A stretch of 64,000 nt of DNA from a phage (OZ346222.1), one strand, 5' to 3'; positions 4,780-63,534 are shown, numbered from the stretch's first letter. Notes: generated from the sequence alone by a model not told the origin. Program-made: numbers and translations.

Positions 4780-4865
4780 ACAAAGGTCAGAACGGAAAGG
4801 ACTCTGTTCTTGCATTTTGTTCCCTAAAGTGTTAAAATAGTCCTAAGGAATTTTCTCAGGAGAAC

Positions 4866-5912: not shown

Positions 5913-5923
5913 AAAGAGGGTAA

Positions 5924-6190
5924 ATGAAACTAACTCAGTTTTTATGGGGACTGGTTGCGGCATCTGATGACCCTACGAAAGTATCCCAAACTAAGCTATG
6001 GTCGAACATAGGCATGGCGGTGATGACTGGGGTGTTTATTCATATGGGGTATAATGATACGCTTCCTGAATGGTATGCGTGGATATACGCGCCTTCAGTA
6101 GCTTGCCCCCAGCTTATTAGCAAATTCATCTCGCTCCGGTGGGGTTGCCAGCACCCTGACCACGTTAAAAACGAAGAGCAAAAAGCTTAA
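5924..6190 (+). CDS. small membrane protein (holin-like?)
   Basis: 88 aa with 2-3 hydrophobic segments and a charged C-terminus (KNEEQKA); location next to fiber genes; function inferred from topology only. Confidence 0.3.
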   Translation: MKLTQFLWGLVAASDDPTKVSQTKLWSNIGMAVMTGVFIHMGYNDTLPEWYAWIYAPSVACPQLISKFISLRWGCQHPDHVKNEEQKA

Positions 6191-6199
6191 GGAGAAATC

Positions 6200-13630: not shown

Positions 13631-13639
13631 CAAGGGGGT

Positions 13640-13675
13640 AAATAAAAAGGGGCCAAACGGCCCCTTTCTTTTTAT
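13640..13675. terminator. bidirectional rho-independent terminator between convergent gene blocks
   Basis: AAAAAGGGGCC-AAAC-GGCCCCTTTCTTTTT: perfect GC hairpin with A-tract upstream and T-tract downstream, between + strand stop 13630 and - strand stop 13678. Confidence 0.7.
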
Positions 13676-13677
13676 AG

Positions 13678-13878
13678 TTAGTAATACTCCCAACATGCCC
13701 CATCTTCAGACGGCTTGACGCGCTTACCTTTATGGTCAACATAGGTATAGCCACAACCTTCACAAATAACAGGTGCTGCATAGCCTTCCTTCCACTGATC
13801 CTCAGTGATCAATCCTTTCAGATCTCCGCAGTCACGACCAAACAACTCTTCAGAACAGTCTTTACAAAAATCAGCCAT
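13678..13878 (-). CDS. small Cys-rich (zinc-ribbon-like) protein
   Basis: 66 aa with CxxC ... CxxC spacing (CKDC ... CEGC). Confidence 0.45.
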   Translation of the reverse strand: MADFCKDCSEELFGRDCGDLKGLITEDQWKEGYAAPVICEGCGYTYVDHKGKRVKPSEDGACWEYY

Positions 13879-36053: not shown

Positions 36054-38483
36054 ATGAGTATGTGGTCTTTCGATTTTGAGTCATCCGGTTTGCTGGAAGA
36101 CCCAGATCTTTATTATCACTGCGGTCTGTTTAAAGAGCTGAATAAGAACCGTTTTATGCTGTTCCTTCCTCTAAATGACCGCACACACTACTCCGAGGAG
36201 GATATAGAAAAGGCTAAGAACTTCATTCTGTCAAAGAAAACTCTTTATAAAGATTTTGAAGTTCGCATAGCAGATTTTTCGGAGTTGGAAGGTTGGCTTA
36301 CAGGCAATTCTGACTGGTCACCAACAGCTTTGAACTGCCATAACTGCTACAGTTATGACTTTATGCTAATGGAAAGATTATCCGGTATTCATTTTGATAT
36401 GTTCCGTGATCCTAAATGCATGGGGACTATCAACGACCACCAGGTTAACCTGTTTGATACGTTGGCTATGAGCCGAATCTTGTGGCCTGATCGCCCTTTA
36501 CCAAAAGGTTGTCCGGACGCTGTATTCAACCCGGTTACTAAGAAAATGCAACCTGTTGGTCCTCACGGCCTTATGGCATGGGGCTACGCCCTTGGTAACC
36601 AGAAAGTTCAAATTGATGACTGGCGCGATCTTCCGTTGTGGAAGTATGTGGATCGTGTATTCGAGGACGTTATCATCCAGGAGCTGCTCTGGAAAGAGCT
36701 GGTAGCGGAATCAAAAGGTGTATTCTACGGCAAATCTGACATGCAGAACTTTATGTACGATCCAGCCAAAGAGAAGCCGAAAGGGTTCAAGAAGATCACC
36801 TGGAAGAACGCATTACGTCGAGGCATGCTGCAGCACTTCCTGATGGAGCTGCAGGCCCGTCAGGGTGTATACTTCGACATAGATGGAGCTATTGCTTTAC
36901 GTGACCGTTGCGATGCGTGGATGAAAGAAATCGCTGATCGTGTTGAACCACAACTACCTTTAAAAGAGCTGTCAATGTCTCAGCGGCCCAAGTTCCCTGA
37001 AAAGCCGTTTAACCAAGACGGGACAATCTCTAATAATGGTTGGAAATGGTTAAAAGATAAGCTTGGCTATCCTGTAGACATGAGTGCTTTAGAGTTCAAA
37101 GCCCCGCCTAAGCGAGCATTTACCTCTACAGGAGATGTCAGCAAGATGGGGATAAAATGGTGTGAAGAGATGGGCTGCAAAGACCCCGATAAGATGGCTG
37201 ATTTCTTGAGAGGCTATATTAAGGGCACCTCCACACCACAACCCTTACCTAAAGAGCTGATGGATCAGGCAATAAGTGATCTGCAGCAGAAGCGAATGCC
37301 TGACTGCAAGATACCTATGAAAATCAGCAATCAGGACGACATCAAGCGATACCTAATCAGTGCTGGTTGGCTCCCAACAATGTGGAGAACTAAAGATGTA
37401 ACTAAAGACAGCAAGAAGAAAGCTTTACCTGATGCAGATGTTGATGCACGAGTATATGCATATATGGACGAGCTTTTGGAGTCAGAGTATTGTGACCTAA
37501 TTATCAACTTCTGGAACAAAACTGATGCTAAGTTCCAGACAACCGTGCACAAGTTCCGAAGCTTTCCTAACTCCGAAAGGATTAAAAAGGAAGTATTCGG
37601 GAAAATACGTAGAAAAGCCAGGGCACTTATTACTTCTCCGCAACTGAAAGATACGTTTGGACACCTATGCCCAAATCTTGAAAAATTGAACGGAGAGATG
37701 GCTAAAGATATCGTCTTGTGGTTATCATTGCGAAACCGCAGATCGGTCCTTGATCCAATCAAGGAGGATAAGGTTGATACTGGTCTTCTTAATCACCCAC
37801 GTTTGAAGATTGACCATAAGCTTCCTGCTAAAAGCTCTGGATTAACAAACACTTCCAGACAGAAACACAGTATTTGTGCAAACATGCCTAAACCATCTCC
37901 TAAAGTGGTTATGGGTAAAGAGATGCGTAGTCTGTGGGGTGTTCCTCCGGGATACTTTGAGATCGGTATTGACGGGTCCAACTTAGAGCAGCTTATCGGG
38001 GCTTGGGGTGCCTTTGAGTTCGACAACGGCCTGTATTATGATGTTGTAAGTAACGGAGACGCACACCAAAACAATGCTGAGGCATATACAAAAGTGGCAG
38101 GCAGAGAGGTGTCCCGTAACGACGGTAAACCTATCACGTATGGGGTTATGTACGGGGCACAAAAAGATAAAGTTGCAGATATGTTGGACATCTCCCCAGA
38201 GTTGGGACAAAGGGTAATCGATGCACTCTGGGATGCCAACCCAGGTCTTAAGGGGCGCAAAGAGGATCTGGAGAAATTCTGGGAAGCAACAGGTAAGAAG
38301 TTTATCTACTCTTTTGATGGTCATGCTATCTGGACCCGATCTAAACACTCTTTACTTAATGCATACCAACAAAATGGCGGTGCATCGTTGTGTGACTTAG
38401 TTGGAATACTCATGCACCACCAGATGGTGAAGCGTGGGTGGTACGATGAAGGTGTTCGTCGTATTATTTATTACCATAAATAA
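36054..38483 (+). CDS. DNA polymerase, family A: exon 1 (3'-5' exonuclease + polymerase through motif B)
   Basis: 809-aa ORF; Exo I-like FDFESSG at N-terminus; motif A-like IGIDGSNLEQL; motif B-like KPITYGVMYGAQ; ORF terminates ...RRIIYYH-K-stop exactly where motif C (HDE) is expected. Confidence 0.7.
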   Translation: MSMWSFDFESSGLLEDPDLYYHCGLFKELNKNRFMLFLPLNDRTHYSEEDIEKAKNFILSKKTLYKDFEVRIADFSELEGWLTGNSDWSPTALNCHNCYSYDFMLMERLSGIHFDMFRDPKCMGTINDHQVNLFDTLAMSRILWPDRPLPKGCPDAVFNPVTKKMQPVGPHGLMAWGYALGNQKVQIDDWRDLPLWKYVDRVFEDVIIQELLWKELVAESKGVFYGKSDMQNFMYDPAKEKPKGFKKITWKNALRRGMLQHFLMELQARQGVYFDIDGAIALRDRCDAWMKEIADRVEPQLPLKELSMSQRPKFPEKPFNQDGTISNNGWKWLKDKLGYPVDMSALEFKAPPKRAFTSTGDVSKMGIKWCEEMGCKDPDKMADFLRGYIKGTSTPQPLPKELMDQAISDLQQKRMPDCKIPMKISNQDDIKRYLISAGWLPTMWRTKDVTKDSKKKALPDADVDARVYAYMDELLESEYCDLIINFWNKTDAKFQTTVHKFRSFPNSERIKKEVFGKIRRKARALITSPQLKDTFGHLCPNLEKLNGEMAKDIVLWLSLRNRRSVLDPIKEDKVDTGLLNHPRLKIDHKLPAKSSGLTNTSRQKHSICANMPKPSPKVVMGKEMRSLWGVPPGYFEIGIDGSNLEQLIGAWGAFEFDNGLYYDVVSNGDAHQNNAEAYTKVAGREVSRNDGKPITYGVMYGAQKDKVADMLDISPELGQRVIDALWDANPGLKGRKEDLEKFWEATGKKFIYSFDGHAIWTRSKHSLLNAYQQNGGASLCDLVGILMHHQMVKRGWYDEGVRRIIYYHK

Positions 38484-38753
38484 CATTGTGGCTTCATAGA
38501 GTAATCTATGTCGAATAACCTCTTTAACTGCGGGAAGCCTAAACCTTATGGCAAGGTAATCCGCAACGAAGCGCTCAAAAGAGCGAACGCTCAGAGGCCA
38601 TTCCGAAAGGAAGTAGACCAGCAAGTGCGGTCGAAATGGGAGGATTCCTGTGGTTGCTTATCATAGGAATATGAGATGGTCCGATCCTACGTGAAAACGT
38701 ATGGCTATGCACGTAATGGTGCGGGGTAGCTTAACGACCTACCTGAACTATTG
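38478..38753 (+). other. putative group I intron (about 276 nt, no ORF) interrupting the DNA polymerase gene at motif C
   Basis: Exon 1 ends in U (CAU His codon); intervening sequence ends in G; downstream frame resumes with GAT GAG (DE) to complete HDE; intron-internal GUGG about 10 nt in can pair with exon-terminal CCAU (P1 with U.G at splice site); boundaries +/- 2 nt. Confidence 0.5.
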
Positions 38754-39107
38754 GATGAGTACCAACTTCAAGTGCCTGACACACCGAAGTATAAGACTGT
38801 GTACACCTTCGACACAATTGAAGAACTGGAAGCATTTAAGGCAGAGCAGGAAGCCAAACTTCATGTGTTCGACGGTCATAAGTACAAAAAGGCACGCAAG
38901 GATGAGGACGGAAACGAAGTGGTTGACAGAGACGGAAACACGGTGTACGATCCTATCCTGAACGATGACGGAAAGCTTGAACTTATCTGGAGCCCTGTGG
39001 GTGAAATGGTGGTACATTGCTTCTGGCAAGCTTCTAAAATGATGGGAGTCCCGTTCCAGATCACAGGTGAATACTTGTGTGGTCGTAATTGGGGTGATTG
39101 TCACTAA
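38754..39107 (+). CDS. DNA polymerase, family A: exon 2 (motif C aspartate through C-terminus)
   Basis: Frame of track ORF 38751..39107 read from codon 2: DEYQLQV... ending ...GVPFQITGEYLCGRNWGDCH, resembling the Pol I C-terminus (...VPLLVEVGSGENWDQAH); no RBS or ATG of its own. Confidence 0.5.
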   Translation, partial: DEYQLQVPDTPKYKTVYTFDTIEELEAFKAEQEAKLHVFDGHKYKKARKDEDGNEVVDRDGNTVYDPILNDDGKLELIWSPVGEMVVHCFWQASKMMGVPFQITGEYLCGRNWGDCH

Positions 39108-39156: not shown

Positions 39157-39441
39157 ATGGTAGTAGAACCAACAAAAACATTTACATCCATGACTATCCC
39201 TGTTATTATGCAGGTGGAGTGTGTTCAGGTATCTCAAGTGTGGCCTGGCACCAAAATCCCAACAGGGCCTGATTTCTTTCAGGTTGGGAAAGTGTACAAT
39301 GTCTGGAAGGCACCAGATTGTTACCCTTTCATTAAAGATGACCGTGGGATGCTGTGGTATCTTGGAAATGACTTGACACTGCACCTTGGGAATGCTATTA
39401 TTGCAGTATTCAGACTTAACAAGAAGGAGACCGATCAATGA
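39157..39441 (+). CDS. small hypothetical protein (small-protein family member)
   Basis: Start at ATG with AAAGAGGAG upstream; Gly/aromatic-rich. Confidence 0.45.
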   Translation: MVVEPTKTFTSMTIPVIMQVECVQVSQVWPGTKIPTGPDFFQVGKVYNVWKAPDCYPFIKDDRGMLWYLGNDLTLHLGNAIIAVFRLNKKETDQ

Positions 39442-39665
39442 CGACTTTGGTTAAAGCCACCTTTGTAGAAGAAAAGATGACAGACATGTCATTCTTTAAA
39501 GAAGGAAAGACCTACGAGGTTTATTACGATAAAGCTCGTGCAAACAAAATGATTAAAGACGAGGAAGGGGTTGACTGGTATATCTCTCACCTGGCAAACG
39601 GTGAGTATCATATCTACGGAACCACTTTGCTTGCCAAGTTTGTAGTTGTTGAAGAGGACCTATGA
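39438..39665 (+). CDS. small hypothetical protein (small-protein family member)
   Basis: 75 aa; RBS AAGGAGA; ATGA overlap with upstream gene. Confidence 0.5.
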   Translation: MTTLVKATFVEEKMTDMSFFKEGKTYEVYYDKARANKMIKDEEGVDWYISHLANGEYHIYGTTLLAKFVVVEEDL

Positions 39666-39856
39666 AAGTAAAGTATCTTGCTGAAGGTATGAATAGGTAT
39701 TTTACCCTTGGTGAAGAATATTGGCCCTTTACAAACAACGGCGATGTCTACGTGAAAGATAATTTCGGCACGCCGTGGTTTCTGCACTCTAATGGGCTGG
39801 GATACTCCATTTACTGCGGTGCAGTGAACAACACAACTCTTGCAGAGTTCGTTTAG
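39662..39856 (+). CDS. small hypothetical protein (small-protein family member)
   Basis: 64 aa; RBS GAAGAGGA; ATGA overlap. Confidence 0.5.
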   Translation: MKVKYLAEGMNRYFTLGEEYWPFTNNGDVYVKDNFGTPWFLHSNGLGYSIYCGAVNNTTLAEFV

Positions 39857-39866
39857 AGGAGGTAGG

Positions 39867-40238
39867 ATGTTAGTAAAAGGTACCCACACAGTCAAACAAC
39901 GTATTGAAGTTGAGATTGATGATTGTGAGCTGAAGCATATTTTACGGTCATGCTCCAACGTTTTGCTCCTTAGTATTCTTCAGGAGCGAGCGGAGAACGA
40001 GTTCTTAAATGCATTGGCAGGCCGTCCCGGTGACTTCTGTGTGCGTAAGCGTGGTGACAACAAGTCGTGGTTGTGGGAGATCGATGCCGACTGGGATTAC
40101 CACAAAAATGAGGGTATAGATGAGCCTATTCGTGAACTGACGGACAAAGAGATTCAGATGTACAATGAAGTTTGTCATTGGGCAACACGCCAACAAATTT
40201 ACCTAGACCCTGTGTGGCTGATTGAAAATAGTCGTTGA
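39867..40238 (+). CDS. hypothetical protein
   Basis: Start at ATG with AGAGGAGG upstream (track ORF from 39840). Confidence 0.5.
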   Translation: MLVKGTHTVKQRIEVEIDDCELKHILRSCSNVLLLSILQERAENEFLNALAGRPGDFCVRKRGDNKSWLWEIDADWDYHKNEGIDEPIRELTDKEIQMYNEVCHWATRQQIYLDPVWLIENSR

Positions 40239-40263
40239 CAAGAAGTAAGGTTAGATGTAAGAT
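40235..40263 (+). promoter_or_regulatory. sigma70-type promoter
   Basis: TTGACA-17 nt-TAAGAT about 50 nt upstream of the 40315 gene. Confidence 0.45.
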
Positions 40264-40314
40264 ACTCCTCACAAACAGAGTATTGATTGTTAAATAATTA
40301 AGGAGACCTCTAAG

Positions 40315-40569
40315 ATGAAAATCATGTTGAAACCAGAATGCGTTGCAAACGACCGAGCTTTTAAAGATTGCACACTTGGCGCTACTTATGAAGCAGAGTT
40401 TTGTGAGAACCCTTTGGTAAAAGCCCTTTTGGAAGAAGGGGCCCCTCTATCACAAGAAGAGCTTGATGAGCTGGAAAACTCAGCACAGTGCCTTACCTTT
40501 AAAGATGATGAAGGAGACTCTGTCTGGTGCACTGTTAACGAAGTAGTTTTTGTAAAAACTGAACATTAA
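40315..40569 (+). CDS. small hypothetical acidic protein
   Basis: 84 aa; RBS TAAGGAGA. Confidence 0.5.
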   Translation: MKIMLKPECVANDRAFKDCTLGATYEAEFCENPLVKALLEEGAPLSQEELDELENSAQCLTFKDDEGDSVWCTVNEVVFVKTEH

Positions 40570-40573
40570 TACT

Positions 40574-40602
40574 TGACAACAGCGATAGGACCTAATACAA
40601 TG
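40574..40602 (+). promoter_or_regulatory. sigma70-type promoter overlapping an inverted repeat
   Basis: TTGACA-17 nt-TACAAT; AGGACC...GGTCCT inverted repeat overlaps the -10 element. Confidence 0.45.
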
Positions 40603-40632
40603 GTCCTATCAAAACGAAAGGGGACCACAGCA

Positions 40633-40893
40633 ATGACCAAACAATATCAACGAATTAAAGCCAAGGTTAAGCCAGACTATCTAGAGAAGGACTCTGCTTT
40701 TCGGGACTGCACAGCTGACAAAGTTTACACAGGGGCCGTCCTGTTGAACGATAAACTTGAAGTAGATGTGCTGGGTAAAGAGGCCGTTATCGAGGATGAC
40801 AACGGTGACTGTGTTTTCTGCACCACACGAGAGCTAGAAGTCTTAGAATATTTCGGTGAAATCTTCAACTCCTTAGACGACGAGGAAGCGTGA
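40633..40893 (+). CDS. small hypothetical protein
   Basis: Start at ATG after AAAGGGGA (track ORF from 40573 would include the promoter). Confidence 0.5.
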   Translation: MTKQYQRIKAKVKPDYLEKDSAFRDCTADKVYTGAVLLNDKLEVDVLGKEAVIEDDNGDCVFCTTRELEVLEYFGEIFNSLDDEEA

Positions 40894-41282
40894 TGAAAAA
40901 TATTTGGGATATCGATATCTTTGAAGCCTCTAAGCTTGACGGTGCTGATGGAGTGATTATGGTGTCTGATGGCAAGGCAACACTAACTTCCGGAGATATC
41001 ATCTATGCCTTGGACGAGCTGGCGCTTCTGAAATCTACCGGTAACACTTTGGAGGAGCGTCTTCAAGGATTCGCTTTCAAAGAAGGTACAAATACAGCCA
41101 TGATGTGCACCACACGGACAGTCCAGGTTGGTAACGGTGTCTATATGATTATTGCTGTGTGTCCTAAATTCAGCAACGTCAACAAAGATGATGCTGACGC
41201 GGTCAACGATGTGGTTGTTCTCTTCGTGGGTGACGCTATGGCAGATCTGATGAATGCAGGAGAAGCAGCAAATGAAGACTGA
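40890..41282 (+). CDS. hypothetical protein
   Basis: 130 aa; ATGA overlap with upstream gene. Confidence 0.5.
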   Translation: MMKNIWDIDIFEASKLDGADGVIMVSDGKATLTSGDIIYALDELALLKSTGNTLEERLQGFAFKEGTNTAMMCTTRTVQVGNGVYMIIAVCPKFSNVNKDDADAVNDVVVLFVGDAMADLMNAGEAANED

Positions 41283-41574
41283 AAACATCACCCCAGCAGG
41301 GTTCTTAAAAGTATACCGTGAACTGCTATATACTACAGAGGACAGTGTTCTAGAGTATCCAGAATATCTTTTGCTGTATAAGTATCTGCAGGAGGCTGGT
41401 GAAAATCTGCCAGTTAGTGCAGAAGGTGGTCCAAACTGGATATACAGCGCATGGAGAAAGGTTGACATTCTCCCAAACCCAGGTAAAGATATGGTAGTTT
41501 GGCAGCTTATCAACAACATCGGGATTCCAATCTTTGATGAAGCTGTTAAAATCTATTTTGAACTTGACGATTAA
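41272..41574 (+). CDS. hypothetical protein
   Basis: Start at ATG with AGGAGAAG upstream. Confidence 0.5.
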   Translation: MKTENITPAGFLKVYRELLYTTEDSVLEYPEYLLLYKYLQEAGENLPVSAEGGPNWIYSAWRKVDILPNPGKDMVVWQLINNIGIPIFDEAVKIYFELDD

Positions 41575-41591
41575 TATCAGGAGACCTTAAG

Positions 41592-41837
41592 ATGACTGAA
41601 GCAGTTGCTCGCGCAGGACAGAAAGTACGTTGTGTTGAAGTAGGTTTTGGTGGCAAAGGGTGTCAAAACTTGACTCAAGGCAAGGAATATGCTGTTATCT
41701 CTGGTGGTGGCGACGAAAGTATTGTGTTCGAGGGTCACATCCTGGATGCTGAAAACTTTGAAATCTTTGACGACGATGGGGATCCGATCACCTGCCTGCT
41801 GGACGGGAATTGGGGAACTTTCGAAGTGATTGGCTAA
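41592..41837 (+). CDS. small hypothetical protein
   Basis: 81 aa; RBS AGGAGA; Gly-rich. Confidence 0.5.
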   Translation: MTEAVARAGQKVRCVEVGFGGKGCQNLTQGKEYAVISGGGDESIVFEGHILDAENFEIFDDDGDPITCLLDGNWGTFEVIG

Positions 41838-41920
41838 CAAATACCTATTGTAATTTACAGAAGGGGATGCTAAAATAGTGTCTCCTTCTATGTTGTTCAA
41901 ATAAAATCGGAGATTCCATA

Positions 41921-42289
41921 ATGGAACAAATGAACGATCAAGAGTCGGTTGCGATGAACGAGCAAGAACAACCTCAAGAATTTTTCTTAGGGTTAAGTAA
42001 AGATCAAGTGTCTCTTTTGCTAGTGCTTTCTTCTTTCATGGGAAGACTTCAGGAGCTCACACAACAACCGGAGGCTGAACAATTATTTCAGGCTCTGCGT
42101 GAAGAAGAAAAATATCGTCGTTTGGACTATGCCTTAGGTTGGGTAGCTCAACAACGAGATATGCTGATGGCCCTCTCTGGGACCACAAGTTTTGCAATGG
42201 GCCTGTTGGCTCAAGTTCAGGACAAATTAATTCAAGCAGGGTTTGCACACACGGCAAACACTAACGAAGAACAAGGAGACAAAGAATGA
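41921..42289 (+). CDS. hypothetical protein
   Basis: 122 aa; RBS GGAG; possible TTGTAA-17-TAAAAT promoter about 40 nt upstream. Confidence 0.5.
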   Translation: MEQMNDQESVAMNEQEQPQEFFLGLSKDQVSLLLVLSSFMGRLQELTQQPEAEQLFQALREEEKYRRLDYALGWVAQQRDMLMALSGTTSFAMGLLAQVQDKLIQAGFAHTANTNEEQGDKE

Positions 42290-43500
42290 GCGTTATTCAA
42301 CAATTCGCTAACCCGATGAATCCGCGTGAAACTGTTTTACTGGCTCACGGCATGATTAAACGCGTCAGCATCAAGCCTATCAAAGGTGCTGATCCTACAA
42401 CAGGTATTAAAACCACTGTGTGGCAAGGTAAGAAAATTGAATCCAGCCACACCATCTCTTTACTGATTTCTGAACTGGATTCCTCTGATAACCTACTTCA
42501 AGGTGGTGAAGAAGTTTGGATCAGTATGGGCGATAAGCTGCTTAAACCGGGTCATCAAGACTCTGTCTCTGTTAAAATTGATGACAAGTGGGAAACCGTA
42601 ACGCCAGGATGGATCGTAAATATTCCTTTGAAGGCAAACGAGCATAACGGTAAGACCTATTACAAAGGCTCACTGGCTAAGATGGTTAAGCTGGGTGTAG
42701 GAGAGGCTCCAGCAGCGACTCAGCAGCAAAAACAGCAACAAGGTGTACAATCACAAGGCCAGAAGCAGAATGCCAATCAGGACGTTTTACGCATCTATGG
42801 CGATGTGACTCAGATTGTTGGCAACGTGGTTACTGTCAATGACCACAAGATTGGCGAAGGTGCTATGGTTGTCACCGATGAGCAGCTTAAAGATCTGGTG
42901 GTAGGTGGTCGTGTTGCAGCCATTGTTGACAAAGACACCGGAAACATTATCAGTGGTTTCAAAGCCTACCCCCCTAAGGCAGAGAACGGCACTCAAGGCT
43001 CCGGTGGCAAGCGTAAATCCTCTTACGACCCTATCGGTGTGGAAACGGGGCATAGCATCAATGCGTTGCAGATCATCCTGGATCGCGGGTTTAAGGTAGA
43101 CGACCCACTGGGCGTGGCTAAAACACTGCACGTAGTCACCATTGAGCTTAAGAAAGAGTATGCTCAGGCCACCAACCGAACTGAAGATGAAGTAGGTGCC
43201 AGTGTCGGTAATGCGGTGTTGAACGCTTGTCGCCGTATTGACAAGAAAACGAAAGTTGATGATTTTGCAGCGGCAATTACTGCAGAAGCAAAAGATGTCT
43301 TGACTAATCTGGCTGAGCCGTTGTACGATTGGATCAAGAACGGTGCTGGGTCAACTGACCATCAAGAACCTCAGGCTACCAAACAGGAAGCAGCTCCACA
43401 GCAAAACACTGTAGACGCTCCTCCTGTAAATGATGAGGAAGATGACCCAATGGATCAGAATCCAGCACAGTACTCCTTTGATGATGACATCCCTTTTTAA
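42286..43500 (+). CDS. ssb: single-stranded DNA-binding protein
   Basis: 404 aa; Gln/Gly-rich flexible central linker; C-terminus ...QYSFDDDIPF identical in its last six residues to the conserved acidic tip of E. coli SSB (DDDIPF); RBS AAGGAGA. Confidence 0.6.
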   Translation: MSVIQQFANPMNPRETVLLAHGMIKRVSIKPIKGADPTTGIKTTVWQGKKIESSHTISLLISELDSSDNLLQGGEEVWISMGDKLLKPGHQDSVSVKIDDKWETVTPGWIVNIPLKANEHNGKTYYKGSLAKMVKLGVGEAPAATQQQKQQQGVQSQGQKQNANQDVLRIYGDVTQIVGNVVTVNDHKIGEGAMVVTDEQLKDLVVGGRVAAIVDKDTGNIISGFKAYPPKAENGTQGSGGKRKSSYDPIGVETGHSINALQIILDRGFKVDDPLGVAKTLHVVTIELKKEYAQATNRTEDEVGASVGNAVLNACRRIDKKTKVDDFAAAITAEAKDVLTNLAEPLYDWIKNGAGSTDHQEPQATKQEAAPQQNTVDAPPVNDEEDDPMDQNPAQYSFDDDIPF

Positions 43501-43510
43501 CAATTAGTTA

Positions 43511-43545
43511 ACATAGCCCTGCCCGAAAGGGTGGGGCATTTTTAT
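43511..43545 (+). terminator. rho-independent terminator (copy 2 of duplicated terminator sequence)
   Basis: GCCCTGCCC-GAAA-GGGTGGGGC hairpin plus ATTTTTAT; same hairpin as at about 33117. Confidence 0.55.
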
Positions 43546-43562
43546 ATAAGGAGATCTGAAAA

Positions 43563-43979
43563 ATGACATTAGAAGATATCATTGTTAAACCTGAGAACTA
43601 TGACCAATACAACCTGTCAACTCAATCTGTAGACCTTGGATGCGCCACGGTCAGTGCGTGGCCGGTTAACGGAAAAGAGCTAGATAAATGCTTAGAAGCT
43701 CACATGTCTATTAACAAGTTTCTGGATGAAAATACTCACTGGCTTGAGGGTGCAGGAGTATATGCTTCATGGTTGGAGAGTATGGGATTCGACTACCAAT
43801 CTGAAGAAGGGTGGTGGAGCTATTTAGCTATCTGTCCAGAGACGCTACAATGCTTCATGAAATACTCTGAAGATTTAGAGTACCGGGCGGTGGTTGATAG
43901 TGCTATTGCCCGTTATAGCCGTAAACCTTTTTCCCACGACATTAAAACTGTGGAAGAGTTTGTTGAAGTTTTCTGTTGA
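43563..43979 (+). CDS. hypothetical protein
   Basis: 138 aa; RBS TAAGGAGA. Confidence 0.5.
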   Translation: MTLEDIIVKPENYDQYNLSTQSVDLGCATVSAWPVNGKELDKCLEAHMSINKFLDENTHWLEGAGVYASWLESMGFDYQSEEGWWSYLAICPETLQCFMKYSEDLEYRAVVDSAIARYSRKPFSHDIKTVEEFVEVFC

Positions 43980-44075
43980 CACAGGTTGAAAGGTGTGCAA
44001 TTATAACTTCATATGACTGGAGGACGTGATGAACGAAGAAAACTGGGATGTATAACTAACAGGAGGCCACTGCCC

Positions 44076-44273
44076 ATGATTTATCGAATCCGTGTAAGAG
44101 AAGATGCACCAGGCTGTTACTTTGACTGGCGTGGGTGGTGGTTTCTCCACCCAATGGATGGACTCACAGATAGAATGCTGGATGCTGCCCTTTATACAGA
44201 TACCGACATAGAGTATAATCTCTATCTGAAGGACGGTATAGATAACGGCCTGTTTGAAGCAATTCCTGTGTAA
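44076..44273 (+). CDS. small hypothetical protein
   Basis: Start at ATG after AGGAGG (track ORF from 44013); Trp/Arg-rich. Confidence 0.45.
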   Translation: MIYRIRVREDAPGCYFDWRGWWFLHPMDGLTDRMLDAALYTDTDIEYNLYLKDGIDNGLFEAIPV

Positions 44274-44341
44274 GAGACTGTGATAGCTATGTTTTATGAT
44301 CTTCCTGTAGCGCCACCACCTGTTGAACCCGGAGAACTAAG

Positions 44342-44767
44342 ATGATCTATGAAATGCCAAAACTGATTCGTGACGATGCCCAAAACGCTCACACCATTAT
44401 TATGGGCAAACGCATGGATATTATTTGTCATAAAGATTTCTGGGAAGGAAGTTACTTCACAGAGTATTTTGGTAAACTGGATAATGGTCTGCTGATCCAG
44501 TTCTACACCGATGCGGAAAACAACATTCCCTGGGAGTTCGAAACTGAAGATATTCATAAACTTTTCACCTTCCTCGATATTAAGGTTAAGGCCAAGTTTG
44601 AAGAGGGTGAGTGCGACGATTGTGGATTTTATGAGGTAACAGATTTCTATCTTCCAAGTGGTAAGAACCTTTACTATGAAAGCCACTTCGGTAACTCAAA
44701 TATGCCACAGTGCTGGACTGAGTTTTTTGAAATTGTGGAAGAGGAGCTGGCATATCGTGATTATTGA
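44342..44767 (+). CDS. hypothetical protein
   Basis: 141 aa; RBS GGAG. Confidence 0.5.
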   Translation: MIYEMPKLIRDDAQNAHTIIMGKRMDIICHKDFWEGSYFTEYFGKLDNGLLIQFYTDAENNIPWEFETEDIHKLFTFLDIKVKAKFEEGECDDCGFYEVTDFYLPSGKNLYYESHFGNSNMPQCWTEFFEIVEEELAYRDY

Positions 44768-45215
44768 TACTGTAGAGGGAGATTTAATCTCCCTTTTTAA
44801 GAGCGGTGCTGGTCACCTGATCCACGGTTGTAACTGCTTCCACACAATGGGTAAGGGTGTAGCAAAACAGATTGCCCGTGAGTTCCCTCAAGCATTGGAA
44901 GCTGATAAAATGACTATGCACGGTTGCCTAAGTAAACTGGGCGCGTTCTCCCGCTGGGAGCACTTATCTCCGAGAGGTATTGTCTACGGAATAAATCTGT
45001 ATACTCAGTTCTACCCAGGGCCTAATGCTGAATATTTCTCAATACTGAAAGGCTTTGAGCGAGTCAATGAAGTATTTGAGGGGTCGATTTTACCATTCTA
45101 CATCCCTAAGATCGGGTGCGGCATAGGTGGTTTGAAGTGGGAACATGTAGAGGACATTATTAACCTTGCCACTTTTGATATAGATATTATCGTGGTGGAG
45201 TACAAAGAGTGTTGA
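44757..45215 (+). CDS. macro-domain protein (ADP-ribose binding / ADP-ribosyl hydrolase-like)
   Basis: GTG start about 10 nt after GAGGAG (track ORF from 44658 overlaps upstream gene); motifs GHLIHGCNCFHTMGKGVAKQI and IPKIGCGIGGL resemble the macro-domain phosphate-binding loops (aligned by eye). Confidence 0.5.
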   Translation: MIIDTVEGDLISLFKSGAGHLIHGCNCFHTMGKGVAKQIAREFPQALEADKMTMHGCLSKLGAFSRWEHLSPRGIVYGINLYTQFYPGPNAEYFSILKGFERVNEVFEGSILPFYIPKIGCGIGGLKWEHVEDIINLATFDIDIIVVEYKEC

Positions 45216-45240
45216 CAGCTATATTTTAAGATGGTATAGT
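45212..45240 (+). promoter_or_regulatory. sigma70-type promoter
   Basis: TTGACA-17 nt-TATAGT upstream of the 45270 gene. Confidence 0.5.
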
Positions 45241-45269
45241 CGCCACAACGATTAAGACAGAGGAGCACT

Positions 45270-45464
45270 ATGGAGACTAAAATCTTAATTCTAGCTGTGA
45301 TAGATACAACAGAAGGAGCCATGTTTGAATCTGCAGGAGGGTATTTCTACCTGCCCTATGGAAAAAGAACTTCCGAGCCGAGTAAAGATTCAATCCTTAA
45401 AGTGTTCCCGTGTGCTTTCTGGCTGGAGATCTTGGTAGAAGATTGCAGAGGACTAGGGAGATAA
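45270..45464 (+). CDS. small hypothetical protein
   Basis: 64 aa; RBS AGAGGAG. Confidence 0.5.
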   Translation: METKILILAVIDTTEGAMFESAGGYFYLPYGKRTSEPSKDSILKVFPCAFWLEILVEDCRGLGR

Positions 45465-45466
45465 TT

Positions 45467-45661
45467 ATGAGAAACAAGAAAGAGCTTTACTCTGGTGAGT
45501 GGATAAACGATCAACAGGTAGGAGAGGTAACCTGCTTCCGGTGCTTTACTAGGTACAATCTTAAAACTGCACCAAAAAGTGTTCCAAAGACTGACGGTTA
45601 TTACATAAAAGAACCTCATTGCCCAAAATGCAAATGCCGATTATACTGGAGTAACCTGTAA
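45467..45661 (+). CDS. small zinc-ribbon protein
   Basis: Start at ATG after AGGGAG; CFRCFTRY ... CPKCKC Cys pairs. Confidence 0.45.
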   Translation: MRNKKELYSGEWINDQQVGEVTCFRCFTRYNLKTAPKSVPKTDGYYIKEPHCPKCKCRLYWSNL

Positions 45662-45665
45662 AAGA

Positions 45666-45693
45666 TTGACATCTGAAAACTGCGGTGTATAAT
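45666..45693 (+). promoter_or_regulatory. near-consensus sigma70 promoter
   Basis: TTGACA-16 nt-TATAAT upstream of the 45725 gene. Confidence 0.55.
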
Positions 45694-45724
45694 ATAAACA
45701 TAAACTAGCAGAGAGTGATATATT

Positions 45725-45916
45725 ATGGTAATTTTTAATCGAGACGGTATCATAGTTAGACAGCACCCATTCCTTGAATACTATCAAATTGAGCAATGGT
45801 GCTACGGGGATTGCAGTCACTCCTATGGGCAAAGTTGGGGATATCGCACAGTTTTTGAATCAACAGATCTTGATAAGGTAAGACAGAAAGTTTTAGAACT
45901 TATTAACAACAAGTGA
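45725..45916 (+). CDS. small hypothetical protein
   Basis: 63-aa ORF downstream of consensus promoter. Confidence 0.45.
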   Translation: MVIFNRDGIIVRQHPFLEYYQIEQWCYGDCSHSYGQSWGYRTVFESTDLDKVRQKVLELINNK

Positions 45917-45923
45917 GTATGAT

Positions 45924-46259
45924 ATGGTAACATTAGAAAGACGTAAAGCTATCGCCGCCACACTGGCAGACATCTTTTGGGAGTGCAATTTAAAAGATAC
46001 CCGATATTGTGGCGCATCTGTAGATGCATTATTCCCACGGCCCACTATTGTTGCAATGGGAAACCTGTCAAACGTGGTGTATGGAGCATGGGACAAAGAA
46101 GGTGGATTTTATATCTGGCAACCTGACTACGGGACCTGGAAAGAGGTAAGGGGTGCGGATGACTTTGGGCCTGCAGTTGCCAAAACGATGGATGGCTGGA
46201 AAATCTATGTCGGTAACGACATGAAGCTGAAAGGCGAGATTGTTTACTGGTTACCTTAA
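45924..46259 (+). CDS. hypothetical protein
   Basis: 111-aa ORF. Confidence 0.5.
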   Translation: MVTLERRKAIAATLADIFWECNLKDTRYCGASVDALFPRPTIVAMGNLSNVVYGAWDKEGGFYIWQPDYGTWKEVRGADDFGPAVAKTMDGWKIYVGNDMKLKGEIVYWLP

Positions 46260-46280
46260 TAAAACGCAGGAGATAAAGTT

Positions 46281-46526
46281 ATGAACAAAGGGTGGACATT
46301 TGTAGACGGCGTTAAAAACATGCCTCTAGGAAAGTATATTGTAGCCATGGCAGATGAGAATGGCAAGGTGGATTTCGGAGTTTGCGAGGTTGTTCTTGCA
46401 GGATCTGGTGACTATGCTCACAAAACTGGGATAATTAACGGTCATTTCTACTTTGATTACAACCCTGTTGTGGCGTATATGGCTATGCCAGAGTTCGAGC
46501 TCCCAAAGGAGGGTGCGGATGTTTAA
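46281..46526 (+). CDS. small hypothetical protein
   Basis: 81 aa; RBS AGGAGA. Confidence 0.5.
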   Translation: MNKGWTFVDGVKNMPLGKYIVAMADENGKVDFGVCEVVLAGSGDYAHKTGIINGHFYFDYNPVVAYMAMPEFELPKEGADV

Positions 46527-46716
46527 GCTTAAATCTGCATGGAACATCGCTGTGGGGGACGAGATCCGCATCCCAGGTGGAAAGACCATTATGAAGATAT
46601 CTCGTATCGAGTACGAAGGTGATCGTGTATTTCATATCTTTGCAGAAGATGGTCGAGAAATTTATATACAGGCAGGCTCTCACATCTATATTCGTAAGAA
46701 AGGGGACGACAAATGA
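46519..46716 (+). CDS. small hypothetical protein
   Basis: Start at ATG with AAGGAGGG upstream; overlaps upstream gene end by 8 nt. Confidence 0.45.
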   Translation: MFKLKSAWNIAVGDEIRIPGGKTIMKISRIEYEGDRVFHIFAEDGREIYIQAGSHIYIRKKGDDK

Positions 46717-47042
46717 CAGAGATCATCATTTCAACTGCAGGGTATGTGTTCCTGACAATCATTGCACTGACCATTCTGGTGGTGGTATATGGAATTGTTA
46801 TTCTCCCTATTCTTGAGACAATTAGTTTGTGTCGGTGTTGGAGAAAGGCTTACGGTCCACAGCCGTGGAAGGACTGGCCCCACCTGGTGCACATAGCGTT
46901 CTCTTATGCTTATGATCACGCCAGCAGTGCATGCATAACCGGGTATCACGCCCACAACTGGAGCTGGGAAGGGTTGAGGAAATGGAATGTTACAAAGACC
47001 ATACCTCTGCGCATGTACAAACCTAAAAACAAAGACAGCTGA
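46713..47042 (+). CDS. membrane protein
   Basis: 109 aa; ATGA overlap; N-terminal hydrophobic span (YVFLTIIALTILVVVYGIVILPIL). Confidence 0.5.
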   Translation: MTEIIISTAGYVFLTIIALTILVVVYGIVILPILETISLCRCWRKAYGPQPWKDWPHLVHIAFSYAYDHASSACITGYHAHNWSWEGLRKWNVTKTIPLRMYKPKNKDS

Positions 47043-47355
47043 TACTTGAAAATCCCTGGCATATCAAGTGTAAGGAGGATTTCTAAAATGGATTTCCTCC
47101 TTTTGATATTTCACCGGGCCAGATATTTTAAAATTCTTAGAAAATCAGAAAATGGATCGAAAACTAAAATGGATTTTTCAAGACAGGCACGATAAGATGT
47201 GCTGCTCATTCTATCGTTCGCACCGTACTTTAAGTCACTATTCCAGATTTTTCCGCACATACTCTCACCCTTCTACCAGAACTTTCCCAGCTTACCTCTG
47301 ACCTTTTATAACAATAAGTCCATTATTATCAGAAAGTTTCGGCACATCTCTTTCG

Positions 47356-47550
47356 GTACTCGATCTGTTTTTCATTTCAAAGACCTGATTTTCTGAAAAT
47401 TTTTCTCGATAAATTTCTTAGTACTCGATCTGTTTTTCATTTCAAAGACCTGATTTTCTGAAAATTTTTCTCGATAAATTTCTTAGTACTCGATCTGTTT
47501 TTCGTTTTCTGAATCGGATTTTCTGGAAATCGTTCCAGCTCTCGACCTGA
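47356..47550. repeat. tandem direct repeat, 65-bp unit, about 3 copies (third degenerate)
   Basis: Unit GTACTCGATCTGTTTTTCATTTCAAAGACCTGATTTTCTGAAAATTTTTCTCGATAAATTTCTTA starts at about 47356, 47421 and 47486 in an ORF-poor AT-rich region; AAATGGAT and GATTTTCTG sub-motifs recur on both sides. Confidence 0.7.
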
Positions 47551-47744
47551 AATTTTTGGGGACGAAATCGATTTTTCGTTTTCAGAAATGGATTTTTAAA
47601 ATTTCTATATGGGAATATTTTATGGGATACTGTTTTATAGGAAATTGTTACGGAGGGTAATTAGCATGCTAATTAAATTTATTAAATGCGAGGAGTTCTC
47701 ATTTAGAATTTTGAATGATAATCATTCTCGTTTGCAGAATAACG

Positions 47745-47767
47745 GGCAGGCCCGGTGATTGTCTCCC
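47745..47767. repeat. conserved 23-nt GC-rich motif, copy A (GGCAGGCCCGGTGATTGTCTCCC)
   Basis: Near-identical copy in inverted orientation at about 57523..57547; related variant CCGGTGGTTGTCTCCCCC at about 47887. Confidence 0.55.
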
Positions 47768-48124
47768 GGCCCCTACTGCCCCGGCTTGTTATTATAGTAT
47801 CACACAGGACAAAGAAAGCAAGGATTTTTTGCATAAATTTTTAAATGATAATGATAACCGTTCTCATTTTATGCAGCGCCCATCCCCGGTGGTTGTCTCC
47901 CCCGTCACCGGTGCCTGCCGTCCTTTCGATAGGTATATCGTGCCACCTGGCGGGGCCGCTGTCAACACTTTTCAAAAAATTTTTCTAACCTGATGCGCTA
48001 ACCGCTGCAACCTGGCGGGGTCAGCCTGGCAGGACCTAACTGACCGGGTAGGAGAGAATGAAGGCTTGTAAACCTGGTGGGCCTATGCTACAGGATAGGT
48101 AACAATTGAAGAGGAGGTACAAAA

Positions 48125-48292
48125 ATGAAAGGTAATATGATCCCCCTAGAAAATGTAGCTATTAATGACGCTGAGGCTATCGCCCTGGTTGAAAAGGCTA
48201 TGGCGGGAGCGTTGGAACATAAAGAAGAGTACGAAAAATGGTGGTTAACCTGGCGGGGGCGGCAGGTGGATTCTATCATAAAAATAATTTAA
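48125..48292 (+). CDS. small hypothetical protein (about 55 aa)
   Basis: ATG 5 nt after strong RBS GAAGAGGAGG; below track cutoff; coordinates hand-counted. Confidence 0.4.
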   Translation: MKGNMIPLENVAINDAEAIALVEKAMAGALEHKEEYEKWWLTWRGRQVDSIIKII

Positions 48293-48301
48293 AATAGTCG
48301 T

Positions 48302-63216: not shown

Positions 63217-63534
63217 TTAACGTTCTACAAAAATACCGTTCAGTTCAATAACCAGGAATTTCTGGTCTTCACTATCGTCTCGTGCCAGCACCTCACAGAC
63301 GTATCGGTCATCCCCATCATCATCGCAGTCAAATACAAGACTGAGGACTTTATCATGGTAAACCTTCGCCACTACCGCCTCGTAAGTATTGCCGATTGTG
63401 AATCCAAGATAATCTCCGATGCATTTGACAACAACATGGTCTCCAGCATTTAAGTCAATCTTCGTCATTACTGCGCTCCTTGGGTAATAATACTGTATGT
63501 AAAACTTTAACCAGAGATGTGAATAACGCCCCAA
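63217..63534 (-). CDS. hypothetical protein
   Basis: 105-aa ORF. Confidence 0.5.
   Translation of the reverse strand: MGRYSHLWLKFYIQYYYPRSAVMTKIDLNAGDHVVVKCIGDYLGFTIGNTYEAVVAKVYHDKVLSLVFDCDDDGDDRYVCEVLARDDSEDQKFLVIELNGIFVER

Follow-up and report, generated by a model that had tools for sequence, protein, structure and literature searches.

A dense block of small genes downstream of the DNA polymerase

What do the many small genes that follow the DNA polymerase gene of an rV5-like phage encode, and are they related to one another? The stretch of DNA analysed here (the window, 64,000 nt) comes from a Vequintavirus, an rV5-like E. coli myophage (OZ346222.1); AlexBoehm is 96.5% identical to this phage at the DNA level and 122 phage records match. 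The initial annotation had described about 20 translationally coupled genes of 60-140 aa at 39157-46716. We counted 22 genes on the + strand at 39157-47042, 21 of which fall within those limits. The dense one-strand block, which runs from the DNA polymerase to about 47.0 kb, was thus recovered, but the size range was not, as g11, which had not been singled out before, encodes 404 aa; the other genes encode 63-152 aa. GGAG-type ribosome-binding sites precede most of the 22 genes, and 19 of the 22 proteins have a pI below 6.6, in agreement with the acidic proteins noted before. Comparison with six related phages gave dN/dS values of 0.01-0.25 for all 22 genes, which indicates purifying selection; with every value well below 1, there was no signature of strong diversifying selection. 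The block is kept in more than 110 sequenced phages. Published transposon data for phage Bas54 on K-12 score 18 of the 22 orthologues as non-essential, two as reduced in fitness, one as intermediate and the g11 orthologue as essential. The locus is a mostly dispensable early-gene block, and its earlier description as an accessory, uncharacterised region fits these data.

Three consecutive genes encode predicted six-stranded β-barrels

The first three genes were said to share a loose Gly/aromatic motif (starts at 39157, 39438 and 39662) and to encode small β-barrels. We refer to them as family A:

g01, 39157..39441, + strand: 94 aa, predicted small β-barrel with an N-terminal insertion; orthologue bas54_0077
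g02, 39438..39665, + strand: 75 aa, predicted six-stranded β-barrel like Gp54 of phage Bas11; ATGA overlap with g01
g03, 39662..39856, + strand: 64 aa, predicted β-barrel; ATGA overlap with g02

The three genes are paralogues. Using phmmer, g01 was linked to g02 (E 4e-6) and g02 to g03 (E 0.002-0.007), and the three orthologue groups share F20, G23, Y26, D41, G44 and W47 without exception. The pattern [FYW]..G..Y…D..G..[WFY] matched exactly g01-g03 among the 721 ORFs of the window, compared with 0.09 matches expected from shuffled sequences. An AF2 model of g02 had a pLDDT of 92.4 and shows a six-stranded small β-barrel with a prominent β1-β2 loop. The shared motif is therefore genuine, and the proposed fold is borne out by structure prediction for family A: as modelled, the tandem genes g01-g03 form a triplet that shares the rare six-stranded fold of Gp54 (Bas11). 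The dN/dS of g01 is 0.03, and bas54_0077 to bas54_0079 were scored non-essential in the Bas54 transposon map.

A Cys-bearing family and its probable link to the triplet

Cys-bearing variants of the motif had been reported at 40315, 40633 and 41592. They correspond to three genes, here called family B:

g05, 40315..40569, + strand: 84 aa, Cys-bearing; predicted SH3-like barrel that contains a helical insertion
g06, 40600..40893, + strand: 97 aa, or 86 aa if the ATG at 40633 is the start
g09, 41592..41837, + strand: 81 aa, the family B member with the strongest link to the family A module

All three share an invariant C19, Y25, DD.GD and C72, confirming that they form a family, and g05 matched g06 at an E of about 1e-7 in phmmer. 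The structure model of family B is of moderate confidence (pLDDT 69) and matches generic SH3 domains, not the Gp54 structure 9AXB, so that family B looks like an SH3-like fold with an insertion. An HMM made only from remote, non-Vequintavirus repeats detected g02 (1.5e-12), g03 (2e-10), g01 (2e-9), g09 (4e-5) and g06 (0.005). In a separate run over the 721 ORFs, an independent profile of remote relatives recovered g01-g03 at E 1e-7 to 6e-11. With hhalign, the probability of a match to the module was 91% for g09 (E 1e-6), 69% for family B as a whole and a weak 20-52% for g05/g06 alone. The orthologues of g04-g06, g08 and g09 are non-essential in the Bas54 map.

Related proteins are found in other phages. 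A Foldseek search of BFVD returned dozens of uncharacterised small proteins with a TM of 0.7-0.8, mostly from Drexlerviridae and often several per phage. The module HMM matched bas11_0048 and bas11_0047, which lie in the same operon as gp54, and the remote relatives are encoded in phage early or replication regions.

The shared motif could in principle reflect chance or compositional resemblance of unrelated short ORFs, as Gly/aromatic patterns arise easily in short β-rich proteins and the link of g05/g06 to the module is weak when taken alone. The three pattern matches against 0.09 expected, the recovery of g01-g03 by a profile of remote relatives, the purifying selection on the genes and the confident g02 model all oppose this explanation. 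It is already contradicted for g01-g03 and g09, and we give it very little credence. Collectively, these results suggest that the six small genes g01-g03, g05, g06 and g09 are probably diverged copies belonging to one tiny β-barrel superfamily that expanded by local duplication.

Comparison with Gp54 and with DUF7244 proteins

The only studied structural relative of family A is Gp54 of Escherichia phage Bas11, the trigger of a bacterial immune sensor. Gp54 (PDB 9AXB) is a non-essential six-stranded barrel of rare topology whose function is unknown (Zhang et al., Nature 2024, PMC11578894). It binds CapRelSJ46 directly through its β1-β2 loop and strands β2-β5, and activation is exquisitely sequence-specific among close homologues as well; even Gp54 homologues that differ at three residues fail to activate (PMC11578894). 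Gp54 (66 aa) and family A (64-94 aa) are alike in that both are non-essential standalone proteins from an operon of densely packed, abutting small early genes that includes other module members. By eye, the F..G and G..W spacings are common to both, and Gp54 G24, the site of a CapRel escape mutation, aligns with the invariant G23 of family A. They differ in that Gp54 comes from a Drexlerviridae siphovirus and family A from a Vequintavirus myovirus, and in that the latter carries a tandem triplet and a Cys-bearing variant family. Sequence homology between Gp54 and family A was not detected (module HMM E 0.66, hhalign probability 0.2%, 16% identity), and 9AXB was not among the matches when PDB sequences were searched with a profile. 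Since the agreement consists of the fold and of the F..G and G..W spacings seen by eye, the resemblance may be convergent.

A second comparison is with DUF7244, a family of the SH3 clan that comprises standalone SH3 proteins of Drexlerviridae (T1-like) lysis modules (PMC13164509). These proteins, and by prediction the block barrels, are small standalone SH3-like barrels of enterobacterial phages, but family A is predicted to have six strands and DUF7244 has five. The barrels could in principle be cell-wall-binding SH3 proteins of this kind that help in lysis. The Pfam model gave weak matches to g09 (14.5 bits, E 0.039) and to the remote relative P0092 (E 2e-4), both below the gathering threshold of 27 bits, and no match to g01-g03, g05 or g06. 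DUF7244 genes are tied to T1-like lysis cassettes, whereas the block barrels are encoded in the early region with no lysis genes nearby and are driven by early-type promoters; an N-terminal signal sequence was not seen by eye in their translations. A role in lysis is thus highly improbable.

An SSB-tip protein, a macrodomain and the remaining genes

The block also contains a gene pair that differs from its neighbours:

g10, 41921..42289, + strand: 122 aa, acidic; ATGA overlap with g11; Bas54 orthologue scored 'Intermediate'
g11, 42286..43500, + strand: 404 aa; C-terminus PMD…FDDDIPF, matching the C-terminal tip of host SSB

The arrangement of a small gene followed by g11 is positionally conserved in other Vequintavirinae genera. 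The g11 orthologue, bas54_0087, is essential (insertions at 8 of 57 TA sites), and g11 occurs in 359 phage records, a few of which annotate it as SSB. Its only matches among PDB sequences are the tails of E. coli SSB (…PMDFDDDIPF; PDB 1EQQ, 7F2N). The acidic tip …DDDIPF lies at the extreme C-terminus and is kept in the Seunavirus, Certrevirus and Phapecoctavirus orthologues, so that the proteins of four genera end PMD…(F/W)DDD(I/V)PF. As in E. coli SSB, the tip is preceded by an acidic tail that is putatively disordered by its composition. In contrast, g11 is far larger than SSB and has a helical C-terminal domain as well as Q-rich and G-rich linkers; sequence searches revealed no OB fold and no Pfam, NCBIfam or PDB match outside the tail. 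We suggest that g11 is probably a non-canonical phage SSB or a recruiter of SSB-partner proteins, acting at the replication fork. We distinguish the pair g10-g11, taken as conserved and essential, from the roughly twenty small, mostly acidic, laboratory-dispensable genes around it.

The previously noted macro-domain gene was identified as follows:

g15, 44757..45215, + strand: 152 aa, GTG start, macrodomain

It matches Pfam Macro (E 1.3e-7, 32 bits, cut-off 22) and NCBIfam DarG (E 2e-12, model positions 3-143). The alignment covers the macrodomain of DarG; the C-terminal DarT-binding domain of DarG is absent. The protein is 41-47% identical to T-even genes adjoining vs, including RB43 'tk.4', and its orthologue is non-essential on K-12 (Bas54). 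Judged by sequence, homology to T-even Tk.4/AdfM and to the DarG macrodomain spans the full length of g15. The T4 Tk.4/AdfM macrodomain is reported to counter DarTG2 (HIDEN-SEQ preprint, bioRxiv 10.1101/2025.11.20.689424), and homology to AdfM suggests that g15 may remove DarT2-type ADP-ribose from DNA. A PADLOC scan of ten block proteins gave zero matches. The idea that the region serves host takeover and anti-defence is consistent with g15 but does not extend to g11, which is essential, widespread and SSB-tipped.

The remaining genes lie outside the barrel families:

g04, 39867..40238, + strand: 123 aa, acidic, phrog_6273
g07, 40893..41282, + strand: 129 aa, acidic; reduced fitness for the Bas54 orthologue
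g08, 41272..41574, + strand: 100 aa, DUF7238 (Pfam PF23885, E 1.6e-7, 31.8 bits, cut-off 27)
g12, 43563..43979, + strand: 138 aa, acidic
g13, 44076..44273, + strand: 65 aa
g14, 44342..44767, + strand: 141 aa, very acidic (net charge -17)
g16, 45270..45464, + strand: 64 aa
g17, 45467..45661, + strand: 64 aa, basic, zinc ribbon CxxC…CxxC
g18, 45725..45916, + strand: 63 aa; reduced fitness for the Bas54 orthologue
g19, 45924..46259, + strand: 111 aa
g20, 46281..46526, + strand: 81 aa
g21, 46519..46716, + strand: 65 aa, basic, β-rich by eye
g22, 46713..47042, + strand: 109 aa, hydrophobic N-terminus, just beyond the end first given for the block; probably a membrane protein

The zinc ribbon predicted at 45467 is supported by a match of g17 to Phage_zn_bind_2 (E 8e-23, 80.5 bits, gathering threshold 27); phage Aya lacks this gene. 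No significant link was found between g21 and the barrel module HMM (E 0.07-0.16).

Several promoter-like sites divide the block

Coupling through ATGA/TAATG junctions had been proposed for the block. Of the 21 junctions, only 8 overlap: four are ATGA, one is TGATG, and three span 8, 11 and 11 nt. Gaps of 2-96 nt separate the genes at the remaining 13. Promoter-like sigma-70 sites numbered 37, compared with 19 +/- 4.9 expected, and near-consensus sites lie in five intergenic gaps; two terminator-like hairpins were also found:

40235-40263: promoter-like site, 5' of g05
40573-40601: sigma-70-like promoter (11/12), before g06
41859..41889, + strand: terminator-like hairpin, 3' of g09; an annotated terminator in phage HdK5
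43516..43537, + strand: terminator-like hairpin, 3' of g11; 9-bp stem with 7 GC pairs and a T-run
43976-44004: promoter-like site, upstream of g13
45212-45240: promoter-like site (11/12), upstream of g16
45666..45693, + strand: sigma-70 promoter with a perfect 12/12 consensus (TTGACA, 16-nt spacer, TATAAT), upstream of g18

Because the 11/12 site occupies 40573-40601, the start of g06 at 40633 is favoured. Translational coupling was thus overstated. Host RNA polymerase would start at several sigma-70 promoters and read the region in no fewer than five or six short transcription units, rather than as a single coupled operon. Overall, the initial observation is partly confirmed and its interpretation partly supported.

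What the barrels may bind

Apart from g01 (pI 6.5), the barrels have an acidic pI of 4.1-5.0 and a net charge of -2 to -12. The variable sites of g02 are concentrated in residues 17-52, where 22 of 36 positions vary; the flanking stretches vary at 5 of 16 and 8 of 23. The acidic pI and this focused variability together argue for binding of protein rather than nucleic acid. SH3-like small barrels frequently bind RNA or DNA, and this together with the early location of the genes would suit small regulators of the Sm, KOW, Tudor or SH3-like type that control early-to-middle transcription or translation of phage or host. The charge of the barrels, their non-essential genes and the protein-binding activity of their only characterised fold relative make such regulators improbable.

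The barrels might instead be replisome accessory adaptors that bind the phage polymerase, helicase or SSB-like g11 and tune replication. Genomic context is compatible with this: g01-g03 begin 50 nt past the DNA polymerase gene on the same strand, DnaB and a Toprim primase flank a five-repeat relative (P0088), with RecA and a DEAD helicase close by, a Prim-Pol gene is found not far from P0087, and the operon of Bas11 gp54, 0047 and 0048 includes a helicase and a Dcm methylase. Such context is weak evidence, however, since early accessory genes commonly adjoin replication genes. None of the six barrel genes is required in Bas54, in contrast to the essential polymerase, primase-helicase and g11 genes. 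In Certrevirus CB7 and Seunavirus GEC_vB_MG the syntenic regions keep the polymerase and g11, but the module was not detected there. We therefore consider replisome adaptors unlikely.

We favour the binding of host proteins: each barrel would be a stoichiometric module for a different host protein, defence or housekeeping, with a binding face formed by the long β1-β2 loop and strands β2-β4. Against this, none of the barrel genes was significantly depleted in one Bas54 comparison of K-12 with a clinical isolate (adjusted p of at least 0.9), and dN/dS shows no mark of strong diversifying selection. Taken as a whole, at a probability of about 0.6 that includes the common origin of the six genes, the locus is an accessory early arm placed after the replication genes, with a superfamily of protein-binding barrels, an SSB-like g11 and an AdfM-like g15. 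By analogy with Gp54, the barrels could also be sensed by bacterial immune sensors. Together, these findings are a modest extension of known biology.

A conserved block of small genes downstream of the DNA polymerase

Over the 8-kb stretch that follows the DNA polymerase gene, identity to Escherichia phage AlexBoehm (Bas56) is 96.5%. The stretch matched 122 phage records, of which 111 had a query coverage of 80% or more. Every match with a taxonomy was Vequintavirus (rV5-like E. coli myophages), a well-sequenced genus in which this conserved block is already known. Also ~96% identical to the window across the block were 16-21 records (MG0656xx) named 'Campylobacter phage' (host C. jejuni), which probably have mislabelled hosts or are contaminating coliphages. 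In annotated records the block genes are labelled 'hypothetical protein' throughout, the sole exception being 'macro domain protein' in HdK5, and their PHROG families are of 'unknown function' for all but g15, in keeping with the initial annotation of the region as mostly uncharacterised. NCBIfam returned nothing for the block proteins except DarG for g15, PADLOC gave no match among the ten block proteins scanned, Rfam found no RNA family within the block, and literature searches on Vequintavirus anti-defence genes and on CapRel versus Vequintavirinae retrieved nothing relevant to the block genes.

The block comprises 22 genes on the + strand (g01-g22; 39157-47042), most with GGAG-type ribosome-binding sites and all encoding 63-152 aa apart from g11 (404 aa). 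Pooled dN/dS values against six related phages were 0.01-0.25 across all 22 (g02 and g20, 0.25; g06, 0.17; g15, 0.16; polymerase, 0.03). This indicates purifying selection on every gene, and thus that all are real; there was no sign of positive selection in this comparison. The zinc-ribbon gene g17 is missing from the otherwise collinear Vequintavirinae sp. EcoIv14a_Aya, so within the genus the presence of at least one block gene varies.

The initial annotation described the genes as translationally coupled. Overlaps were found at 8 of the 21 junctions (ATGA at g01/g02, g02/g03, g10/g11 and g21/g22; TGATG at g06/g07; 11, 11 and 8 nt at the other three), the remaining 13 being gaps of 2-96 nt. 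Sigma-70-like sites were enriched (37 observed vs 19 ± 4.9 in shuffles), and the best five on the + strand lie in intergenic gaps. Both terminator-like hairpins were also annotated by HdK5's authors.

Predicted transcription signals of the block (window coordinates)
40235-40263, + strand, promoter-like site
40573-40601, + strand, promoter-like site (11/12)
41859-41889, terminator-like hairpin 3' of g09
43516-43537, terminator-like hairpin 3' of g11
43976-44004, + strand, promoter-like site
45212-45240, + strand, promoter-like site (11/12)
45666-45693, + strand, promoter-like site (12/12)

The gaps, predicted promoters and hairpins suggest that the block consists of several short early-type transcription units rather than one coupled operon. 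The predicted promoter at 40573 favours the originally proposed g06 start at 40633 over 40600.

Upstream, a group I intron without a homing endonuclease, at 38468-38703 on the + strand (Rfam RF00028, 64.7 bits, E = 7e-15), divides the polymerase gene into 36054-38483 and 38751-39107. Bas56 and Bas49 have an endonuclease ORF at this site, and the polymerase is uninterrupted in HdK5 and Bas54.

g01-g03 are paralogues and predicted small β-barrel proteins

All-against-all phmmer comparison related g01 to g02 (E = 4e-6), g02 to g03 (0.002-0.007) and g05 to g06 (about 1e-7), all other pairs being noise. The glycine/aromatic motif of the initial annotation, written as a regular expression, matched g01-g03 (family A) and no others among the 721 stop-to-stop ORFs of the window, against a mean of 0.09 and a maximum of 2 matches in shuffles. 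The motif families of the initial annotation are real, and as an observation that annotation was largely right. F20, G23, Y26, D41, G44 and W47 (g02 numbering) are invariant in the three orthologue groups. AlphaFold2 modelled g02 from a 23-sequence alignment with pLDDT 92.4 and pTM 0.80 as six strands with a long β1-β2 loop containing a short helix, and the small β-barrel first proposed is well supported for g01-g03. As further barrels, g13 and g19-g21 were considered and set aside (E = 0.07 or higher).

The characterised protein of this fold class is Gp54 of phage Bas11 (PDB 9AXB), a 66-aa, non-essential protein of unknown function and very rare topology, which binds the pseudo-zinc-finger of CapRelSJ46 directly with a Kd of 800 nM (Zhang et al. 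2024, PMC11578894). Contact is made by the β1-β2 loop and strands β2-β5 while β1 and β6 unfold, and G24D is a CapRel escape mutation (PMC11578894). Comparison of Gp54 (from MZ501085) with family A showed no connection by sequence (HMM E = 0.66; hhalign 0.2%). A search of PDB sequences with the family A profile gave noise alone (CRP, E about 0.3) and missed 9AXB, which places the link at the level of fold only. By eye, and not on a structural alignment, F21..G24 and G40..W43 of Gp54 correspond to F20..G23 and G44..W47 of family A.

The gp54 gene is one of several small genes that abut one another. Two others of this leftward operon, bas11_0047 and bas11_0048 (9337-9944 of the Bas11 locus, - strand), carry the sequence module described below (…IKCT…FKAGKRYQI…YVFDEDGDRF…) and matched its HMM at E = 3e-3 and 4e-4, respectively (set of 8). 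Bas11 may therefore carry several superfamily members beside the CapRel trigger.

The module occurs in remote phage proteins

Word-index searches with family A, family B (g05, g06 and g09) and the broad module returned only Vequintavirus orthologues at ≥69% identity (most ≥74%) and one 99-aa fragment. Likewise, a tblastn search of 50,697 phage records with g02 gave Vequintavirus only, plus Cronobacter phage CR9 at E = 0.9. An exhaustive profile search yielded credible remote relatives, of which P0085, P0086 and P0093 are standalone proteins and P0087, P0088, P0090, P0091 and P0092 contain 2-5 repeats; their consensus is 'v.C…(F/W)T.GKEY.V…(I/V).DD.G'. P0090 has two copies fused to DUF3310, a family that includes the lactococcal SaV protein, an AbiV trigger; this offers no more than a lead. 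Two further matches, the giant surface proteins P0089 and P0094, were rejected as spurious, their Pfam domains being β-helix, Ig and fn3 repeats. At the structural level, Foldseek against BFVD returned dozens of uncharacterised phage proteins of 60-170 aa (TM 0.7-0.8), mostly from T1-like Drexlerviridae, where a single phage often has several (NBD2 has four), and one from Cronobacter phage CR9. In Certrevirus CB7 and Seunavirus GEC_vB_MG, the module HMMs had no match in the syntenic stretch between the polymerase and g11, nor did they match in the ESCO5 locus.

The Cys-bearing family B was assessed with an HMM built from the remote repeats alone, no Vequintavirus sequence being included. Among the 22 block proteins this HMM detected g02 (1.5e-12), g03 (2e-10) and g01 (2e-9), and then g09 (4e-5), g06 (0.005) and g05 (0.27). 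Profile-profile comparison, a check proposed with the initial annotation, failed to connect Gp54 but related the g09 group to the module with 91% probability and the g05+g06 group with 20-52%; the whole of family B matched the broad module at 69% (E = 4e-5) over β1-β4, skipping the insertion. C19, Y25, D64, D65, G67, D68 and C72 are invariant in the three proteins, and g09 has a sub-threshold match to Pfam DUF7244, of the SH3 clan. The AlphaFold2 model of g05 is of only moderate confidence (pLDDT 69, pTM 0.49); its five strands follow the expected order, and two helices are inserted. We read g09 as very probably belonging to the same superfamily as family A, and g05 and g06 as probable SH3-like variants of that superfamily.

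An 84-aa ORF at 63217-63471 on the - strand (MTKIDLNAGDHVVVKCIGDYLGFTIGNTYEAVV…LSLVFDCDDDGDDRYV…) carries the module 'v.C…G..Y…DDDGD' as in g09. It matches the motif regular expression and scored E = 0.14 with the remote-only HMM (721 ORFs). From its sequence it is a probable seventh member, in a separate early region and on the opposite strand.

Dispensability of most block orthologues in Bas54

Transposon essentiality has been mapped in Bas54 by HIDEN-SEQ (bioRxiv 10.1101/2025.11.20.689424). Bas54 is phage MaxBurger, as matched by locus tags and coordinates, and its proteins share 80-100% identity with their counterparts in the window.

Essentiality of Bas54 orthologues
bas54_0076, DNA polymerase: essential
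bas54_0077-0082, 0084 and 0085, g01-g06, g08 and g09: non-essential
bas54_0083, g07: reduced fitness
bas54_0086, g10: intermediate
bas54_0087, g11: essential (8/57 TA sites hit)
bas54_0089-0094, g12-g17: non-essential
bas54_0095, g18: reduced fitness
bas54_0096-0099, g19-g22: non-essential

In the part of the dataset considered here, one strain comparison (K-12 vs a clinical isolate), significant depletion was seen for none of the block genes; for the g10 orthologue, log2FC was -3.81 (adjusted p 0.16). Directly downstream of the block is a gene-poor stretch (window ~47100-48300; bas54_0100 to bas54_0102), presumably the 'repeat region' of the initial annotation. Here bas54_0101 (105 nt) is essential (0/11 TA sites hit) and bas54_0102 shows a strong fitness defect. 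No Rfam family matched this stretch, which may be an important non-coding element.

Other genes of the block

g15 passes Pfam Macro and matches the DarG antitoxin macrodomain (E = 2e-12, model positions 3-143). It has homologues in 2,810 phage records, and its full-length identity to the T-even gene adjoining vs (tk.4 in RB43) is 41-47%. T4 Tk.4, recently named AdfM, protects T4 against DarTG2 (bioRxiv 10.1101/2025.11.20.689424), and we annotate g15 as a putative AdfM-type anti-DarT2 macrodomain. g17 is a zinc ribbon (Phage_zn_bind_2, 8e-23) and g08 a DUF7238 protein.

g11 is conserved in 359 phage records (Vequintavirinae, Justusliebigvirus and Phapecoctavirus), a few of which annotate it as SSB. 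Its orthologues in four genera end in PMD…(F/W)DDD(I/V)PF, and the only matches of its profile to PDB sequences were enterobacterial SSB C-terminal tails (1EQQ and 7F2N); no OB fold was detectable by sequence. In Certrevirus and Seunavirus a small gene and then g11 end the rightward early arm, a likeness of position. A homing endonuclease gene lies directly 3' of g11 in Bas54 (11861-13727 of its locus) and Bas49 (4787-6653), comparable to window 43480-43560. In both, annotated g11 runs 15 residues beyond the …DDIPF tip (…CDDIPFAPVGLQYGKSRIHAL). SSB-tip binding normally needs a free C-terminal Phe; the extension would bury it, yet the Bas54 gene scored essential. Both g15 and g11 would have ordinary explanations.

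The barrels as candidate protein-binding modules

Since the only characterised relative by fold binds a protein, we infer that the barrels may be protein-binding modules directed at host proteins. The barrels are acidic (pI 4.1-5.0; g01, 6.5), which argues against nucleic-acid binding. Among 29 g02 orthologues, variable sites are concentrated in residues 17-52 (22/36, vs 5/16 and 8/23 in the flanks), the region of the binding face in Gp54, which supports a protein binder. That the module is duplicated, and present in multiple copies in several phage groups, is consistent with a diversification of targets. Against this count the absence of a phenotype and of positive selection, and a rival reading drawn from replication-gene context. 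The genes for the remote relatives are on phage contigs, with early or replication genes around them: between DnaB and primase, close to a Prim-Pol, beside a dNMP kinase and ArdA, or within a phi29-like podovirus.

Taking the binder reading further, we give a probability of roughly 15% to the Gp54-like barrel being the fold that founded a large superfamily of early phage 'adaptors', one that has so far gone unrecognised. Its members would occur as standalone proteins, as tandem paralogues or as proteins of 4-5 repeats across Drexlerviridae, Vequintavirus and uncultured phages, and each would bind a host immune or housekeeping protein through the variable β1-β2 loop and the β2-β4 face. CapRel-type sensors would have evolved to detect this class of fold. 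The triplet and the Cys-variant copies in Vequintavirus would serve as a diversified arsenal against defence systems, retained because each paralogue has targets of its own.

New here is that the duplicated families are placed in the Gp54(Bas11)/SH3-like barrel class. The sole known fact about the Gp54 fold was that one member triggers CapRelSJ46 defence. The same fold is now predicted for a duplicated family in the unrelated, therapeutically used rV5-like group, with relatives detectable by sequence among multi-repeat proteins and gp54's own neighbours, which turns a single oddity into a family open to comparative study. For a block labelled 'hypothetical' in more than 120 GenBank records, the analysis also offers concrete annotations: a predicted AdfM-type macrodomain, a predicted essential SSB-tip protein and a zinc ribbon.
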